From a virus: 12,461 bases of DNA. Shown piece by piece: positions 1 to 6,001 of this stretch. Position 1 is the first letter of the stretch. Each line of letters begins with the position of its first letter. The translations under genes and the position numbers were made by a program. The notes under the pieces were generated by a model. The model did not search any database. It had not been told where the DNA came from and saw only the letters and a program-made list of their open reading frames with translations. The stretch is taken from the UHGV virus genome UHGV-0232909; one strand, written 5' to 3'.

Positions 1-24
1 AAATGTGTACCGCGAGATCTGAAA

Positions 25-321
25 GTGAATGAAACGGATGCTGAATACCTGGTGCGTAAATTTGATGCGCTTGAAGCTAAATGTGCAGCACTGGAAAACA
101 AAGTAATACCAGTGTCAGCTGAACTGCCGCCAGCGAATGAAAGTGTTCTGTTATTTGATGCTAATGGAGAAGGCTGGCTGATTGGCTGGCGTTCTCTCTG
201 GTATACATGGGGGCAAAAAGAAACCGGAGAATGGCAGTGGACATTTCAGGTCGGGGACCTTGAAAACGTCAACATCACTCACTGGGCAGTAATGCCAAAA
301 GCACCGGAGGCTGGAGCATAA
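25..321 (+). CDS. DUF551-like phage early protein (start uncertain; frame is open to the window edge)
   Basis: 98-aa ORF beginning at a GTG; the same frame is open back to base 1, so the true start may lie upstream. Trp-rich C-terminal half ending ...ITHWAVMPKAPE resembles the DUF551 signature of lambdoid/P22-like early-region proteins. Stop TAA overlaps the next ATG (TAATG at 319-323). Confidence 0.55.
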   Translation: MNETDAEYLVRKFDALEAKCAALENKVIPVSAELPPANESVLLFDANGEGWLIGWRSLWYTWGQKETGEWQWTFQVGDLENVNITHWAVMPKAPEAGA

Positions 322-1130
322 TGACCACATTTACCGATAAAGAACTGATTAAAGAAATCAAAGAACGAATCAGCAGCATGGACGTGCGAGACAATGTTGA
401 GCGCCGTGCTTATGAAATTGCTCTGGCATCGCTGGAAGAGGATCCGGTGGCATGGCTGCATTCAGACAATGGCTTAGGTATTCCGGCAATAACCAGGAGT
501 AAAAACATTGCTGACAGTTGGTTATCAAAGGGCTGGTATGTTCAGCCGCTATATATAGCTAAGCCAGTGCCGGTGGTGCCAGATGCTCGTCCGTCTTTAA
601 ATAATGGCATAGTCGGTTTTGATGAAGGCTGGAACGCCTGCCGCGCTGCCATGCTCTATGGTGCCGTACCTGCAAGCCAGGCTTACAAGTTGCCACAAAC
701 GCAGTTTAAACAGGTTGCTGACCTCTACGAAATGCAATTTGATGACGGTCGCACTTGTGCCTTTCACACTGATGCGCAAAAGGCTGTGCAATGGCTTCAG
801 GCGTGCGACGGAAACAGGGTTCAGGAATACGTTAAGCTGGAACGATTGCAGAACGCACTGTCTGGCAACTCTCCGGTAACTCCGGATGGTTGGGTTATGG
901 TGCCGAAGAGACTAACAGCCGAGAACGGCGCTAAGGGGGCGCTATCCGGTGAATTTTCAGAAACTACGTTTATAAGCTGCCTGGAATGCTTTGGCGATGA
1001 TGATTGCGATACCTGTGACGGGAGCGGACGTATTGAAATTAAAGTGCCAGTCACGTGGTCGACCATAAAATCTATCTGGGATAAAGGTATCGAGTATTTT
1101 GCAGCAAAACCATCACAAGAGGTGAAGTGA
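321..1130 (+). CDS. hypothetical phage early protein with C-terminal CxxC-x5-CxxCxGxG zinc-ribbon motif
   Basis: 269-aa ORF with ATG at 321 and GGAG 4 nt upstream. C-terminus CLECFGDDDCDTCDGSGRIEIK is a DnaJ-like zinc-finger motif. Its stop TGA (1128-1130) overlaps the ATG of the exonuclease gene. No family recognised for the N-terminal 200 aa. Confidence 0.6.
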   Translation: MTTFTDKELIKEIKERISSMDVRDNVERRAYEIALASLEEDPVAWLHSDNGLGIPAITRSKNIADSWLSKGWYVQPLYIAKPVPVVPDARPSLNNGIVGFDEGWNACRAAMLYGAVPASQAYKLPQTQFKQVADLYEMQFDDGRTCAFHTDAQKAVQWLQACDGNRVQEYVKLERLQNALSGNSPVTPDGWVMVPKRLTAENGAKGALSGEFSETTFISCLECFGDDDCDTCDGSGRIEIKVPVTWSTIKSIWDKGIEYFAAKPSQEVK

Positions 1131-1702
1131 TGAACAACTTAATGATCGACCTTGAGACGATGGGGAAAAATAAGGATGCACCGATCGTTTCCATTGGCGC
1201 GGTGTTCTTCACTCCAGAAACCGGAGACATCGGACAAGAATTCTATACGGTTGTTAGCCTGGAAAGTGCTATGGGGCAAGGAGCTACACCTGACGGCGAT
1301 ACCATCCTGTGGTGGTTGAAACAAAGCCCTGAAGCACGAGCTGCAATCTGTATTGATGATACTTTGTCGATCAGCGATGCTCTCTCAGAACTAAATCATT
1401 TCATTAACCGGCACGCAGACAATACGAAATATTTAAAAGTCTGGGGTAACGGAGCCACCTTCGACAACGTAATTTTACGTGGAGCTTATGAGCGAGCAGG
1501 ACAAATCTGCCCGTGGGCATACTGGAATGACCACGATGTACGCACGATCGTTACGCTTGGGCGTTCCATCGGATTCGACCCCAAAATGGACATGCCTTTC
1601 GATGGCGAACGGCACAACGCCCTGGCTGATGCCCGTCATCAGGCAAAATATGTTTCCGCTATCTGGCAGAAATTAATTCCTGCCACCAGCACAGAATTAT
1701 GA
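1130..1702 (+). CDS. DEDDh-family 3'-5' exonuclease (DnaQ/RNase T-like), phage-encoded
   Basis: Exo I motif MIDLETMG (D-x-E), Exo II motif WGNGATFDNVIL, Exo III motif HNALADARHQAKY (H-x4-D) are all present in order. The ORF track starts at GTG 1127; ATG at 1130 with GAGG at 1118-1121 is the more likely start. Confidence 0.85.
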   Translation: MNNLMIDLETMGKNKDAPIVSIGAVFFTPETGDIGQEFYTVVSLESAMGQGATPDGDTILWWLKQSPEARAAICIDDTLSISDALSELNHFINRHADNTKYLKVWGNGATFDNVILRGAYERAGQICPWAYWNDHDVRTIVTLGRSIGFDPKMDMPFDGERHNALADARHQAKYVSAIWQKLIPATSTEL

Positions 1703-1738
1703 TTTTCCCGGGTGCAGCCGGTTTTGATGGAGAAAATT

Positions 1739-2020
1739 ATGAACACCTTGTTTTTACTGATGGCTGAATTCAATACCCCTAACATTGAACTCTCAGCAGT
1801 TAGCCAAAAGTACTTTGGCATGAGTCCAGCCACGGCAGAAGCAAAAGCAAACGCTTGTAAGTTGCCCGTTCCAACATATCGCATCGGCACATCACAAAAA
1901 GCAAAACGTTGCATCAATATTCAGGATCTTGCGGAATACATAGACAAAAGACGAGAAGAAGGACGTATCGAGTGGGAACAGGTCAGAACAAGCAAACAGA
2001 AGGGCAAAGAACATCACTAA
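1739..2020 (+). CDS. PrtN/excisionase-like small DNA-binding protein (putative Xis)
   Basis: N-terminus MNTLFLLMAEF... is typical of the PrtN / prophage excisionase-like family. GGAG at 1729-1732 sits 6 nt before ATG 1739; the longer ORF-track version starts at GTG 1712 without an RBS. Located upstream of, and in the same orientation as, the integrase. Confidence 0.65.
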   Translation: MNTLFLLMAEFNTPNIELSAVSQKYFGMSPATAEAKANACKLPVPTYRIGTSQKAKRCINIQDLAEYIDKRREEGRIEWEQVRTSKQKGKEHH

Positions 2021-2022
2021 AT

Positions 2023-2050
2023 AAAAAACCCGCCTAAAGGCGGGTTTTCA
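2023..2050. terminator. bidirectional rho-independent terminator
   Basis: AAAAAA-CCCGCC-TAAA-GGCGGG-TTTT: a perfect 6-bp GC stem (2029-2034 / 2039-2044) with a 4-nt loop, flanked by an A-run upstream and a T-run downstream, so it gives a U-tract on either strand. It lies between the convergent genes ending at 2020 (+) and 2068 (-). Confidence 0.7.
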
Positions 2051-2067
2051 AAAAGCACCAGCTATGA

Positions 2068-2241
2068 TCATGCTGCTTTGCGACGACGAAGCTTACCCTG
2101 CTGCTCTTTACCAGAGACAGTAGCGTGAGTGAACGCATTATGAGCAGCCTTCATCAGAACTTCAACAGCAGCACCCATACCTGCGAATGCTTTCATTGTG
2201 TCGAACTTAACCTGTGGCTTGGTTGCTTTTTGATCTTCCAT
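2068..2241 (-). CDS. small basic-tailed protein (57 aa), third gene of the minus-strand accessory cassette; absent from the ORF track
   Basis: Hand translation of the minus strand: MEDQKATKPQVKFDTMKAFAGMGAAVEVLMKAAHNAFTHATVSGKEQQGKLRRRKAA. A strong SD (AGGAG) sits 7 nt upstream of the ATG (ATG = complement of 2239-2241). Stop at 2068-2070, immediately followed by the bidirectional terminator. Confidence 0.45.
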   Translation of the reverse strand: MEDQKATKPQVKFDTMKAFAGMGAAVEVLMKAAHNAFTHATVSGKEQQGKLRRRKAA

Positions 2242-2280
2242 AGAAAACTCCTGAAGTTATACCGAAACAATTCCTGTTGT

Positions 2281-2700
2281 TTACTCATCATCAATAGATG
2301 ATACGCAATATTTATTTTTAAATTTAAGGTTCTTTGGCGTAACTTCATCAGAGATATCAAAACCGTCCAGAATTCTATTGAATGTAGCTTCTGGCATATC
2401 ATCATGAACAGAAATCTCACCCGATCGCTGCTTTCTAACCATGTTATCCACTCGCCAAATTATAGCTTCAGCGTAAACAACATAACTTGGATGCTTGATA
2501 AAGCGATGATCACCAGAATTCAAGATGCAAGACGGATCGTGGGGGACACCATCCTTGATACTAGAAATATTAACAACTAAAACACAATAACAATCGTTAA
2601 CGGGGTAATAAACAGGATCATTACAAATCACATGAAGATGATTGCATGGCCCAGTTGGGGCAAGCACAGTTCCTTTCCTGTATGGCTGATAATCCGTCAT
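2281..2700 (-). CDS. unknown 139-aa protein translationally coupled to the Panacea-domain gene (candidate toxin/effector)
   Basis: ATGA overlap with the upstream gene (stop/start share 2697-2700). No recognised family. Cys/His-rich N-terminal half (CNHLHVICNDP...DCYC...DPSC...DHRFIKHPS) and acidic C-terminus (SSIDDE). AT-rich codon usage unlike the flanking phage genes. Confidence 0.65.
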   Translation of the reverse strand: MTDYQPYRKGTVLAPTGPCNHLHVICNDPVYYPVNDCYCVLVVNISSIKDGVPHDPSCILNSGDHRFIKHPSYVVYAEAIIWRVDNMVRKQRSGEISVHDDMPEATFNRILDGFDISDEVTPKNLKFKNKYCVSSIDDE

Positions 2701-3269
2701 GATAATTGCAAAGAAAATTCCTTAAGTTTCTGAGATTCTTCCATTTTGCCAATTATGCGATTAGCCTCATCCTCGCTTTTACCCTCACTGATCAGCATTT
2801 CTTTCAGGTCTATAGGCTTACGAGAATTGCCAGGATCGTGCCACTCTGGACAAACGCTTTCTAAATGCGTCATATTTGCGAGATCAAATCGGTTCATATG
2901 CCCATACCGAGAATAGATTTCATCTAAAATCCGGATATCTGCACGACTCAATTCATCAAAGACCTCGTCTGCATCCATTTCCCTCGGATCTGAACGCAAC
3001 GATACATTATGCCCGTTCGTCTCTATCAAGTTGTACCAGTAGTCACCAATGCCTTCAGCCTTACCGCGAATCAAGTTCAGCGTATTCGACATGACTGGTC
3101 CAAATTTCATAGAGTAAAGGCTATCTTCGCCGATCATCCTGCCATGCTTCAAAATCGACTGGCGGTTAGACAGATAGAGCAACTTCATCAATTTCAGATA
3201 TGCCATGCGCCCACCTCGCTTAAGAAGTAGGTATGCAGCCATTTGAGCTACTTTTTCTTCGCAAAACAT
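2697..3269 (-). CDS. Panacea-domain protein (SocA/PanA-like; DUF4065), putative antitoxin
   Basis: 190-aa ORF. The segment AAYLLLKRGG-RMAYLKLMKLLYLSN...KFGPV matches the Panacea-domain core pattern (K-L-x-K-L-L-Y ... G-P-V). GAGG lies upstream of the ATG (complement of 3267-3269). First gene of a three-gene minus-strand operon. Confidence 0.75.
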   Translation of the reverse strand: MFCEEKVAQMAAYLLLKRGGRMAYLKLMKLLYLSNRQSILKHGRMIGEDSLYSMKFGPVMSNTLNLIRGKAEGIGDYWYNLIETNGHNVSLRSDPREMDADEVFDELSRADIRILDEIYSRYGHMNRFDLANMTHLESVCPEWHDPGNSRKPIDLKEMLISEGKSEDEANRIIGKMEESQKLKEFSLQLS

Positions 3270-3660
3270 ATAAGAAACCTCAAAGATAGTGAACTTTATA
3301 ATTATTCTCGATACTTCATGGGTTGCTTCATCACCAACACGAGCTTCTTATGGTGTGCCCACTTGGGCCTAAGCAACCAGTTACCTCGTTTGTCAAGTTT
3401 ATAGCTGGCTTTAACCATGGTCAATTGAAGTGATGAGCAAATGATGCTTTCTAAGAATAACAGGTTCCCAATAGGCTCCCACAAAGTGTATAACTAGTTG
3501 TTTTTCAAAAACGGTACATCCTATCGAGCATAGGAGCAATGCTAAACCGAGAATTCCAGTAAACACCAGTTTTTTCAGGCATCACGCTGGTTTGATTAAT
3601 TTTTTGTGTTTCATGATTATCGTGCATTTTTGAACATTTCAGGCTATTTTTCTCGCATTA

Positions 3661-3696
3661 GGTTCCCGCACAGGTTCCCACGTTTTATGGGAACCC
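3661..3696. promoter_or_regulatory. cluster of GGTTCCC(A) repeats immediately upstream of int (candidate operator or integrase arm-type sites)
   Basis: GGTTCCC at 3661-3667 and 3673-3679 (direct) and GGGAACC at 3689-3695 (inverted), giving the palindrome GGTTCCCA-cgtttta-TGGGAACC. A second pair, CAGGTTCCCA / AGGCTCCCA, lies at 3461-3480. The int RBS (GAGG, 3705-3708) and ATG (3716) follow directly. Confidence 0.3.
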
Positions 3697-3715
3697 GAAA
3701 TAACGAGGTCGTGTA

Positions 3716-4813
3716 ATGGCGTACTATAACATAGAGAAACGACTAAAATCCGATGGCACACCACGCTATCGCTGTAATGTGATTATCAAAGAAAAAGGTG
3801 TTATCACTTACAGGGAAAGCAAAACATTCCCTAAACATGCTCATGCCAAAACATGGGGCACACAGAAAGTGATGGAATTAGATCTATATGGCATTCCATC
3901 ATCAAATGCAGTTGACGGACTTACAGTCCGTGACTTACTACACAAATATTTAAATGACCCAAATGCCGGAGGTAAAGCAGGCCGTACTAAAAGATATGTG
4001 CTGGAACTGCTTATGGATAGTGACATCTCCGCGATCAAACTATCTGAACTGACAGAAAATGACGTAATTGAACATTGCAGGCTAAGAAACAACGCTGGCG
4101 CAGGTCCAGCAACAGTCAGCCACGATGTTAGTTATCTTGGCAGTGTTCTGGATGCGGCCAAACCTGTATACGGAATTAATTACACATCAAACCCGGCGAA
4201 AAGTGCTCGTCCATATCTACTTAAACTTGGTTTGATTGGTAAATCAAACCGTCGTAATCGTAGACCAGCATCTGATGAACTGGACATGCTCATTGAAGGC
4301 CTTCAACAACGATCTACTCATAAATGCTCAAAAATTCCGTTCGTTGATATCCTCAAATTTTCTGTGTGGTCCTGTATGCGAATCGGAGAAGTATGCCGGT
4401 TACGATGGGAAGATCTCGACCAGGAACAAAAATCTATACTCGTAAGAGACAGGAAAGATCCACGCAAAAAGGAAGGCAACCACATGAAAGTAGCCTTGCT
4501 TGGGGAAGCCTGGGATATCGTCCAACGACAGCCCAAAAAATCGGAATTCATTTTTCCATATAACAGCACTTCTATTACTGCGGGATTTCAGAGGGTAAGA
4601 AGCAAATTAGGTATTAAGGATCTGCGATACCATGATTTGCGTAGAGAAGGGGCAAGTCGCTTATTTGAGGCTGGTTTTAGTATTGAGGAAGTAGCCCAGG
4701 TTACAGGGCATCGTTCATTAAACGTGCTATGGCAGGTATATACCGAACTGTATCCGAAATCTTTACATAATCGTTTTGAAGAGCTCCAAAGGAGCAGAAA
4801 TAAGACCCCTTGA
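3716..4813 (+). CDS. int: tyrosine-type site-specific integrase
   Basis: 365-aa ORF with RBS GAGG 7 nt upstream. Carries the conserved tyrosine-recombinase boxes: MRIGEVCRLRWEDLD (Arg box), HDLRREGASRL (H-x-x-R) and a C-terminal GHRSLNVLWQVYTELY with the candidate catalytic Tyr. Confidence 0.9.
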   Translation: MAYYNIEKRLKSDGTPRYRCNVIIKEKGVITYRESKTFPKHAHAKTWGTQKVMELDLYGIPSSNAVDGLTVRDLLHKYLNDPNAGGKAGRTKRYVLELLMDSDISAIKLSELTENDVIEHCRLRNNAGAGPATVSHDVSYLGSVLDAAKPVYGINYTSNPAKSARPYLLKLGLIGKSNRRNRRPASDELDMLIEGLQQRSTHKCSKIPFVDILKFSVWSCMRIGEVCRLRWEDLDQEQKSILVRDRKDPRKKEGNHMKVALLGEAWDIVQRQPKKSEFIFPYNSTSITAGFQRVRSKLGIKDLRYHDLRREGASRLFEAGFSIEEVAQVTGHRSLNVLWQVYTELYPKSLHNRFEELQRSRNKTP

Positions 4814-4861
4814 CACTGTTTATCCATACAGTTAAAAATAATACTGTATACAAACACAGTA
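4810..4861 (+). promoter_or_regulatory. SOS-regulated promoter: TTGACA -35 hexamer plus two LexA boxes (CTGT-N8-ACAG)
   Basis: TTGACA at 4810-4815 overlaps the int stop codon. LexA-like box 1 is caCTGTttatccatACAGtt (4814-4833). Box 2 is taCTGTatacaaacACAGta (4842-4861), a near-consensus SOS box lying between the promoter and the RBS AGAGGG (4863-4868) of the DinI-like gene. Confidence 0.6.
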
Positions 4862-4874
4862 TAGAGGGACTTTT

Positions 4875-5123
4875 ATGCGTATTGAAATCTGCATAGCCAA
4901 AGAAAAAATGACTAAAATGCCAACCGGTGCTGTGGATGCGTTAAAGGAAGAATTAACCCGACGCATCAGTAAACGTTATGACGATGTAGAGGTGATCGTA
5001 AAAGCCACCAGCAACGATGGCCTTTCTGTTACACGCACCGCAGATAAGGATTCTGCAAAAACTTTTGTTCAGGAGACTCTGAAAGATACCTGGGAATCTG
5101 CTGACGAGTGGTTTGTTCACTAA
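4875..5123 (+). CDS. dinI: DinI-family DNA-damage-inducible protein (phage-borne paralogue)
   Basis: 82-aa protein [31 protein letters not shown]...[16 protein letters not shown] aligns along its whole length with E. coli DinI from memory (MRIEVTIAK...QETWESADDWFV). Preceded by LexA boxes and a good RBS. Confidence 0.85.
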
Positions 5124-5190
5124 TTAACACGTAAAATCGGTAACGGCTGGAAATCATTCAATAATCGCACTATCGAAAGTTCGCCAGCCA

Positions 5191-5226
5191 GCCGCAGCAC
5201 GTTCTTGCATACGACGTGGCTGCGGC
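5191..5226. other. extended imperfect stem-loop between the DinI-like gene and the invertase remnant
   Basis: GCCGCAGC (5191-5198) pairs with GCTGCGGC (5219-5226); the inner CACGT/ACGTG also pair, giving a stem of about 12 bp with one bulge and an 11-nt loop. No clear U-tract on either strand, so it is not a canonical intrinsic terminator. Confidence 0.35.
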
Positions 5227-5266
5227 TTCCAACATTAGACAAATAACTCTTTAAATTGCTTTTAAA

Positions 5267-5635
5267 TTATTTCGTTTGAATGCCAGTAACAGGAAATCGT
5301 TTATATAGGGTTGATAGCCCAACGTTATAGATACGTGCAACATAACGCCGTGATTTCCCTGCCGCTATGAGCGCTCCCATCTGTTGCCACTGCTCGTCGC
5401 TAAACTTCGGTCTACGCCCACCAATCCGGCCTTTGGATCTGGCAATAGCCAAACCAGCTAAAGTTCGCTCGCTATTCAAATCAGATTCATACTGCGCAGC
5501 AGAAAGAATATTACGGAAATTATAGCGACCACTTGCTGTTTTCAGGTCTACGCCATCTGTAATACTCCGAAAATTAACACCTTTTTCGTGCAGATTTTGA
5601 AACATCAATAGCGCATGCAGCACATTTCTCCCTAA
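5267..5635 (-). pseudogene. pin: N-terminally truncated serine DNA invertase (Pin/Gin/Hin family) remnant
   Basis: The translation ...PLGRN-MLHALLMFQNLHEKGVNFRSITDGVDL...SKGRIGGRRPKFSDEQWQQ...YNVGLSTLYK matches the C-terminal two thirds of Pin/Gin (LGRSMKHLISLVGELRERGINFRSLTDSIDT...NKGRIGGRPPKL...ALSTLYKK). The roughly 70 N-terminal residues, including the catalytic Ser region, are absent; similarity stops near 5636 and no ATG-initiated full-length frame exists. Confidence 0.8.
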
Positions 5636-5641
5636 GGGGAA

Positions 5642-6001
5642 TTGTCTGCTGCTGGGGTTAGCGGTGGCGCTGCATCTGCTTCAGGATACATCACCATTCC
5701 GATGATTATTAATGGAGCAAGGCGGGTCTTATACATCCAATGGGGGGGATTTACAGGAACTACAGATAGCTCCGGCTCCAACGGAATATATGAAACCTCA
5801 AATATCACCGTCACCTGGACAGTTGCTTTCCCCAATGCGGTTTTCCAGGTGATAACAGGCGGTTCATCTGATGTTAGTGGTGTCGGGCAGCAAGAGATGG
5901 CATGGAGTCTGGGCAAAACAAAAACTAATGGGATTTTTGGTTTTCAATGCCGGACACCAAACGCATCGATGACTGGCTCATATCTTGTAATTGGTTATTA
6001 A
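5642..6001 (+). CDS. tail-fibre C-terminal (variable-domain) cassette lacking an N-terminal anchor domain; silent alternative segment
   Basis: Gly/Ser/Thr-rich beta-type sequence typical of phage tail-fibre distal domains. The frame opens at 5636 exactly where invertase homology ends on the other strand; only a TTG start (5642) is available. Directly followed by a tfa gene, the usual Sv'-U' arrangement of Mu G / P1 C / e14 invertible segments. Confidence 0.55.
   Translation: MSAAGVSGGAASASGYITIPMIINGARRVLYIQWGGFTGTTDSSGSNGIYETSNITVTWTVAFPNAVFQVITGGSSDVSGVGQQEMAWSLGKTKTNGIFGFQCRTPNASMTGSYLVIGY

Follow-up and report, generated by a model that had tools for sequence, protein, structure and literature searches.

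We analysed a 12,461-nucleotide (nt) stretch of the virus genome UHGV-0232909, referred to here as the window, with a focus on two adjoining minus-strand genes that have the layout of a toxin-antitoxin (TA) module. A sequence-only reading had proposed that an open reading frame (ORF) of 139 amino acids (aa), rich in Cys and His and ending in an acidic tail, is a candidate toxin partner of a Panacea antitoxin. The ORF, the Cys/His pattern and the acidic tail are all present in the minus-strand translation of 2281-2700, and the proposed partnership is borne out by the gene directly upstream. The product of this gene matches Pfam family SocA_Panacea (PF13274; E 2.2e-19, residues 27-137), and its RefSeq name is 'Panacea domain-containing protein'. 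The two genes, named panT and panA, and their junction are as follows.

2281..2700, minus strand: panT, PanT toxin candidate of 139 aa, ATG start, predicted MazF/PemK-like fold, Kurata cluster T6
2697..3269, minus strand: panA, stand-alone Panacea antitoxin of 190 aa, PF13274
2697..2700, minus strand: ATGA overlap of 4 nt between panA stop and panT start (translational coupling), read directly from the sequence

Translational coupling of panA and panT would fit this arrangement, since reading of the sequence upstream of the panT ATG revealed no Shine-Dalgarno motif at a useful distance; the panA ATG is preceded at 8 nt by a GAGG Shine-Dalgarno motif. The 4-nt ATGA overlap recurs in the Proteus, Shewanella, Enterobacter, Pantoea and Yersinia loci described below. 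On the evidence that follows, we consider it likely that the 139-aa ORF encodes the PanT toxin of a two-gene, type II PanA-PanT module in a temperate, e14/SfV-like coliphage with dusA as integration site, and that PanT is a MazF-like endoribonuclease curbed by PanA. Fold, family membership and operon structure are established for the window pair itself; the toxic effect, its neutralisation, the formation of a complex and translation as the target would carry over to the window PanT by analogy with a homologue of 44% identity.

The module belongs to a catalogued family of Panacea-linked toxins

Panacea-linked toxins were surveyed by Kurata et al. 2022 (PNAS; PMC8832971), and cluster T6 of their Dataset S1, designated 'EndoA/PemK/MazF-family RNAses' by HHpred, includes the validated PanT of Pseudomonas moraviensis (WP_083201923.1) as well as a pair from Proteus vulgaris FDAARGOS_556 (GCF_003812525.1; PanA WP_072063025.1, toxin WP_072063026.1, order A|T, overlap -4). 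A homologue 63% identical to the window PanT (P0017) is encoded in the FDAARGOS_556 assembly (CP033736.1), where a Panacea gene of 188 aa directly precedes it and overlaps it by 4 nt. We linked P0017 to the Dataset S1 row through the assembly number, the Panacea neighbour and the -4 overlap. Since this homologue lies in the assembly and arrangement of a T6 row, the window PanT belongs to T6. The protein had been put forward as a new toxin that fits no named family; instead, it shares a cluster with the validated P. moraviensis PanT and adds a member to a catalogued toxin family, neither the fold nor the family being new. Searches of Pfam and NCBIfam with the window PanT returned noise only (ICMT, E 0.043; DapC, 17 bits), and PHROGs places the protein in phrog_19071, 'unknown function'.

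The relation to the P. moraviensis system was followed through its antitoxin, the N-terminal extension of which is quoted as MIFSEQKVAQ (PMC8832971). Loci of the P. moraviensis type were sought with a degenerate DNA pattern for this peptide. Genome-wide, the pattern with ATG as first codon gave zero matches, the start codon being TTG; with the first codon left off, seven stretches matched, six of them in Pseudomonas. The three Pseudomonas loci that were read contain TTG-initiated PanA genes followed by toxins of 132-134 aa. In the closely related P. atacamensis, the system of which is near-identical to that of P. moraviensis, the toxin has 43% identity to the window PanT (E 3e-32), and PanA, which has the N-terminus IFSEQKVAQ as in P. 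moraviensis PanA, has 43% identity to the window PanA (E 4e-49). Also in the 90%-identity cluster of the P. atacamensis toxin is P. moraviensis SDU72800.1; it has 44% identity to the window PanT (E 4e-34) and is probably the validated PanT WP_083201923.1. By sequence comparison, both genes of the window module are homologous to the P. moraviensis system. In that system, PanT is toxic in E. coli, the growth of which it arrests, is neutralised by PanA and co-purifies with PanA, and it specifically inhibits 35S-methionine incorporation, i.e. protein synthesis (PMC8832971).

PanT homologues are paired with Panacea genes

A word-indexed search retrieved 62 homologue clusters from Enterobacterales, Vibrio and Shewanella (46-79% identity), all annotated as 'hypothetical', while a profile search of 1.84 billion representatives returned 2690 clusters at E<=1e-3, 927 at E<=1e-10. 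The ORF at 2281-2700 is a real gene, and the PanT family is large, with ~2700 clusters (50% identity). A Panacea gene lies immediately upstream of the PanT homologue in every locus read, which covered Vibrio, Shewanella, Proteus, Enterobacter, a divergent E. coli member, Pantoea, a second dusA-integrated element (L032), Yersinia and Pseudomonas. Three distant metagenomic representatives (26-36% identity) are likewise paired with Panacea genes. Across the loci read, panA-panT is conserved as a unit in Gammaproteobacteria and metagenomes. On the contig of one of these three representatives (L045, 1793-4097), two Panacea genes come one after the other, and a protein of ~130-136 aa is encoded behind each, in an apparent tandem duplication of the pair.

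PanT is predicted to adopt a MazF-like fold

An AlphaFold2 model of the window PanT, based on a 38-sequence alignment, has a predicted local distance difference test score (pLDDT) of 92.6 and a predicted template modelling score (pTM) of 0.86. It consists of a β-barrel followed by three helices and is soluble and globular; no transmembrane segment is present in the model, in agreement with the earlier view that the protein is soluble-looking and unlikely to be a simple membrane-depolarising toxin. The fold had been described as unknown. In a Foldseek search of the PDB, the top 50 matches are all MazF-family toxin structures, with a probability of about 1.0, and the best BFVD matches are phage proteins named 'PemK-like protein/endoribonuclease'. 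The model and structure search thus assign PanT the MazF/Kid/CcdB SH3-like barrel as its predicted fold.

The same SH3-like barrel traps DNA gyrase and blocks replication in the case of CcdB, and a PanT acting as a CcdB-like gyrase poison is an alternative that we regard as highly improbable. Nine MazF/Kid-type ribonucleases (RNases) outscore CcdB in the structure comparison, and the top 50 are MazF-family structures throughout. The profile-profile match is to PemK/MazF, with catalytic positions in register (see below). The C-terminus of CcdB is critical for gyrase binding, and the PanT C-terminus is variable. Furthermore, the P. moraviensis member inhibits translation specifically and not thymidine incorporation (PMC8832971).

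The profile-profile comparison with hhalign used a diverse PemK/MazF profile that combines E. coli MazF and ChpB, ten plasmid PemK/MazF toxins and eight MazF relatives. It aligned 100 columns with an E of 1.7e-4, at a probability of only 49.9%; for the P. moraviensis member, a match by HHpred is reported by Kurata et al. In the resulting register, PanT H21 falls on MazF R29, S46/S47 on T52/T53 and N44 on P50; the MazF β1-β2 loop (G22, E24) is deleted in PanT, and the segment G63-D-H65-x-F67 is an insertion. Arg29 and Thr52 are catalytic residues of E. coli MazF.

Several of these comparisons weigh against a MazF-like PanT. The low probability of the diverse-profile alignment is one; with a shallow profile made from close relatives of E. 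coli MazF, the probability was 0.5%, in the same register. PemK_toxin (PF02452) gave no match to the window PanT at E<=1 and none to any of 71 family members at E<=0.01, and searches of PDB sequences with either the single PanT or the family hidden Markov model yielded nothing meaningful. Two features of MazF, the catalytic Arg and the β1-β2 loop, are not found in PanT.

Conserved residues and the putative active site

The Cys and His residues of the window PanT occur as C19-N-H21-L-H23-V-I-C26, C37-Y-C39, C58 and H65-RFIK-H70, and the protein ends in SSIDDE. The enterobacterial subfamily keeps H21, H23, C26, D55, C58 and H65 without exception, and H70 almost without exception. In the wider family (71-sequence alignment) only H21 and C58 are invariant (71/71), with D55 present in 70/71 and H65 in 69/71 sequences. 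Position 23 is F, H or Y in this alignment and position 26 is L, C, M, I or V; C19, C37 and C39 are not conserved, and the acidic tail is missing in most homologues. The S46/S47 positions are conserved as Ser/Thr. C26 shares a strand face with the conserved hydrophobic L22, and is therefore a buried core residue.

The sequence-only reading took the Cys/His pattern as suggestive of a metal site or small catalytic domain. Of these, the catalytic domain has stood up, while the family as a whole is not characterised by a multi-ligand Cys/His metal cluster, because most of the Cys/His residues vary across its wider membership. A zinc-finger-like structural site formed by all Cys/His residues was considered and rejected: C19, C37 and C39 vary, and C26 occupies a hydrophobic core position. 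We infer from the alignment that the active site of PanT is at the position of that of MazF, a His replacing the catalytic Arg. C58 appears to sit at the base of the hairpin after S47, adjoining this putative active site.

The four best-conserved residues could also signify a MazF fold with different chemistry, whereby H21/C58 together with D55/H65 form a Zn site or a Cys-His-Asp centre that acts on a substrate other than mRNA phosphodiesters, for example protein or a nucleotide. The near-complete conservation of these four positions is what such a centre would lead one to expect; moreover, the invariant Cys is foreign to the MazF profile, the inserted GDHxF segment has no counterpart in MazF, and RNA cleavage by T6 members is a prediction only. 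However, H21 coincides exactly with MazF R29, and S46/S47 with T52/T53; positions 23 and 54 hold an aromatic residue or His throughout, which base stacking would call for; the remaining Cys/His residues are not conserved; and the homologue has a translation-specific phenotype that is consistent with an RNase. On balance, we think different chemistry unlikely.

Phage setting and cargo slots

Window positions 3-5634 are 99.7% identical to Escherichia phage SKA5. SKA5 is e14/SfV-like and temperate, and its attP bears a dusA fragment. The gene order in this region is exonuclease, PrtN-type excisionase (1712-2020, plus strand), terminator, 57-aa ORF, panT, panA, dusA fragment, integrase (3716-4813, plus strand) and dinI, with the 57-aa ORF, panT and panA forming the minus-strand block. 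Three features accompany the TA pair in this block.

3396..3424, minus strand: sigma-70-like promoter candidate upstream of panA, TTGACC-17-TAAACT, 9/12 match, weak evidence
2024..2049, minus strand: intrinsic terminator-like hairpin closing the leftward transcription unit, 11-bp stem with 6 GC pairs, then a T run
2068..2241, minus strand: 57-aa ORF between panT and the terminator, function unknown (phrog_2741, E 1e-33, 'unknown function')

Promoter-type sites are no more numerous in the region than in shuffled sequence, and 3396..3424 is thus to be read as a candidate only. The terminator-like hairpin also serves xis on the plus strand. The 57-aa ORF lies 39 nt downstream of panT and encodes a Lys/Arg-rich C-terminus; it is possibly co-transcribed with panT. 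It is also found in phage mEp460, which does not carry panAT, and because it is kept in phages with and without the pair it is probably independent of it.

Comparison of mEp460 (2569-3796) with the window (2068-3700) shows both flanks to be common to the two phages, at 96% identity, with an unrelated 177-aa hypothetical gene in the panAT position of mEp460. Since the same flanks enclose an unrelated gene in mEp460, panAT occupies a variable cargo slot, located between the conserved 57-aa gene and attP/int.

The short dusA-derived ORF between panA and int (3505-3627, minus strand), annotated 'tRNA-dihydrouridine' in SKA5, marks the attP of a dusA-integrating phage, and in E. coli chromosomes the panAT pair adjoins dusA. 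Of 5426 complete E. coli genomes, 206 (~4%) contain the 989-bp panA-panT segment, in each case on the chromosome. The panT gene, annotated only as 'hypothetical protein', also occurs in isolated coliphages, e.g. SKA5 and Lys8385Vzw.

Elsewhere the pair occupies other positions. In a Pantoea prophage (L030/L031, 1566-4778), panA-panT directly follows a cI-type repressor gene (helix-turn-helix plus S24) and precedes an N-antiterminator gene, the place of rexAB in lambda; this slot behind the repressor suggests expression of the pair in the lysogen. The Enterobacter (L026/L027) and Yersinia (L033/L034) pairs are located within the tail module, between a lambda-type K-like NlpC/JAB gene and the I/J genes, and the Proteus pairs (L006-L015) neighbour tail-fibre genes as well as Abi_2, S8-peptidase or ABC-ATPase genes. 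In Vibrio, Shewanella and the second dusA-integrated element, the pair adjoins integrases. Proteus vulgaris FDAARGOS_556 (GCA_003812525.1, CP033736.1) carries at least 2 identical panA-panT copies, ~64 kb apart, in two seemingly related prophages.

Other genes of the window region include that for an Rv2179c-like 3'-5' exoribonuclease (1127-1702, plus strand; PF16473, E 4e-75), which corresponds to a split 'exodeoxyribonuclease VIII' in SKA5, and that for a DinI homologue (4875-5123, plus strand; PF06183). The DNA invertase gene (5267-5830) is truncated, with the C-terminal 118 codons (5267-5623) open and stops in the upstream part. The match to SKA5 ends at 5634, diverges to 7373 and then resumes at 97%; as it is lost from 5634, the SKA5 breakpoint lies inside the invertase gene, beside the tail-fibre segment.

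Proposed mechanism

In the mechanism that we propose, PanA, a stand-alone Panacea protein, would bind PanT directly and inhibit it. Freed PanT would act as a metal-independent endoribonuclease in the manner of MazF and stop translation, with H21 standing in for the MazF Arg and Ser/Thr46-47 for Thr52/53. The family-specific D55, C58 and GDH65xF insertion would adjoin the active site. In a lysogen, the pair might form an abortive-infection/superinfection-exclusion or addiction cassette, set free when PanA is inactivated or depleted.

Further points count against parts of this proposal. For P. moraviensis PanT, RNase activity is predicted, and T6 members are called 'putative RNases' (PMC8832971). 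A role of panAT in phage exclusion is plausible, with gene position as the sole pointer to it; in PADLOC-DB v2, none of PanT, PanA and the 57-aa ORF has a match at E<=1, which speaks against a defence role. Finally, two phage-borne, PanA-linked 'mRNase' candidates of cluster T1, from E. coli MOD1 and Salmonella phage Emek, were non-toxic (PMC8832971). The non-toxic 'mRNase' of E. coli MOD1 was considered as a member of the PanT family and ruled out, its cluster being T1 and not T6.

Such non-toxic candidates raise the question of whether the pair is self-poisoning in its native host at all: PanT might be non-toxic alone and operate solely in combination with PanA, the two forming a two-component accessory or defence factor of the phage. 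Several predicted PanT candidates, among them the two phage-borne proteins just named, were indeed non-toxic in E. coli (PMC8832971), and stable carriage of the pair in the 206 complete E. coli genomes would be in keeping with this. The phage-borne candidates nevertheless belong to a different cluster, the tested T6 member is toxic in E. coli and neutralised by PanA, and a tight overlap with strict PanA co-occurrence is expected for a toxin that is never to be made alone. We therefore judge a non-toxic pair to be distinctly unlikely. The CcdB-like, variant-chemistry and non-toxic-pair readings are each less well supported than a MazF-like PanT.

It is also conceivable, if doubtful, that the T6 PanT represents the MazF fold in a catalytically distinct form (His21/Cys58/Asp55/His65, with a possible metal or another RNA or non-RNA substrate), with PanA as a phage-sensing switch, and that the two constitute a prophage abortive-infection system placed in rexAB-like and att-proximal slots. 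The remaining interest of the T6 family as a whole lies in its unusual His/Cys/Asp/His constellation in place of the MazF Arg, and in the possible exclusion of superinfecting phages; either answer would leave the current understanding of TA systems standing. The analysis gives a family, a fold and a probable function to a gene annotated as 'hypothetical protein' in ~4% of complete E. coli genomes, and its importance is modest.

Comparison with known systems

The closest known system is PanA-PanT of P. moraviensis. In both it and the window module, the antitoxin gene comes before the toxin gene (order A|T), the two genes overlap or abut, and the antitoxin is a stand-alone Panacea protein ('noNTD'). 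The toxins are of similar length (132 aa for the Pseudomonas toxin, 139 aa for the window PanT) and have the H21, D55, C58, H65 and S47 positions in common. The P. moraviensis locus was scored 'NotPhage', in contrast to the location of the window pair in an E. coli temperate phage. Unlike P. moraviensis PanT, the enterobacterial subfamily to which the window belongs has additional conserved residues (H23, C26, C37/C39 and H70), and the window PanT has an acidic tail.

With respect to MazF, PemK(Kid) and ChpBK (PF02452), the window PanT differs in falling outside the reach of the Pfam model and in having an invariant His for the catalytic Arg29. The long β1-β2 loop of MazF, with its conserved Gly22 and Glu24, is a 2-residue turn in the window PanT, which has the family-specific D55/C58, the GDHxF insertion and an extra C-terminal helix that MazF does not. 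The antitoxins also differ, that of MazF being of the AbrB/MazE type and that of the window being Panacea. CcdB of the F plasmid ccdAB system is more remote, with a structural score below those of the MazF proteins and conserved C-terminal gyrase-binding residues that are not found in PanT.

On the antitoxin side, the PF13274 domain of the window PanA is shared with SocA of the Caulobacter SocA-SocB type VI TA system. The window PanA is not a SocA equivalog, scoring 14.4 bits against a cut-off of 190 for NCBIfam NF047745. As cited in PMC8832971, SocA serves ClpXP as an adaptor, and the target that SocB blocks is the β clamp. Unlike SocAB, and in the manner of classical type II systems, the PanAT pairs that Kurata et al. 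tested assemble into stable complexes (PMC8832971).
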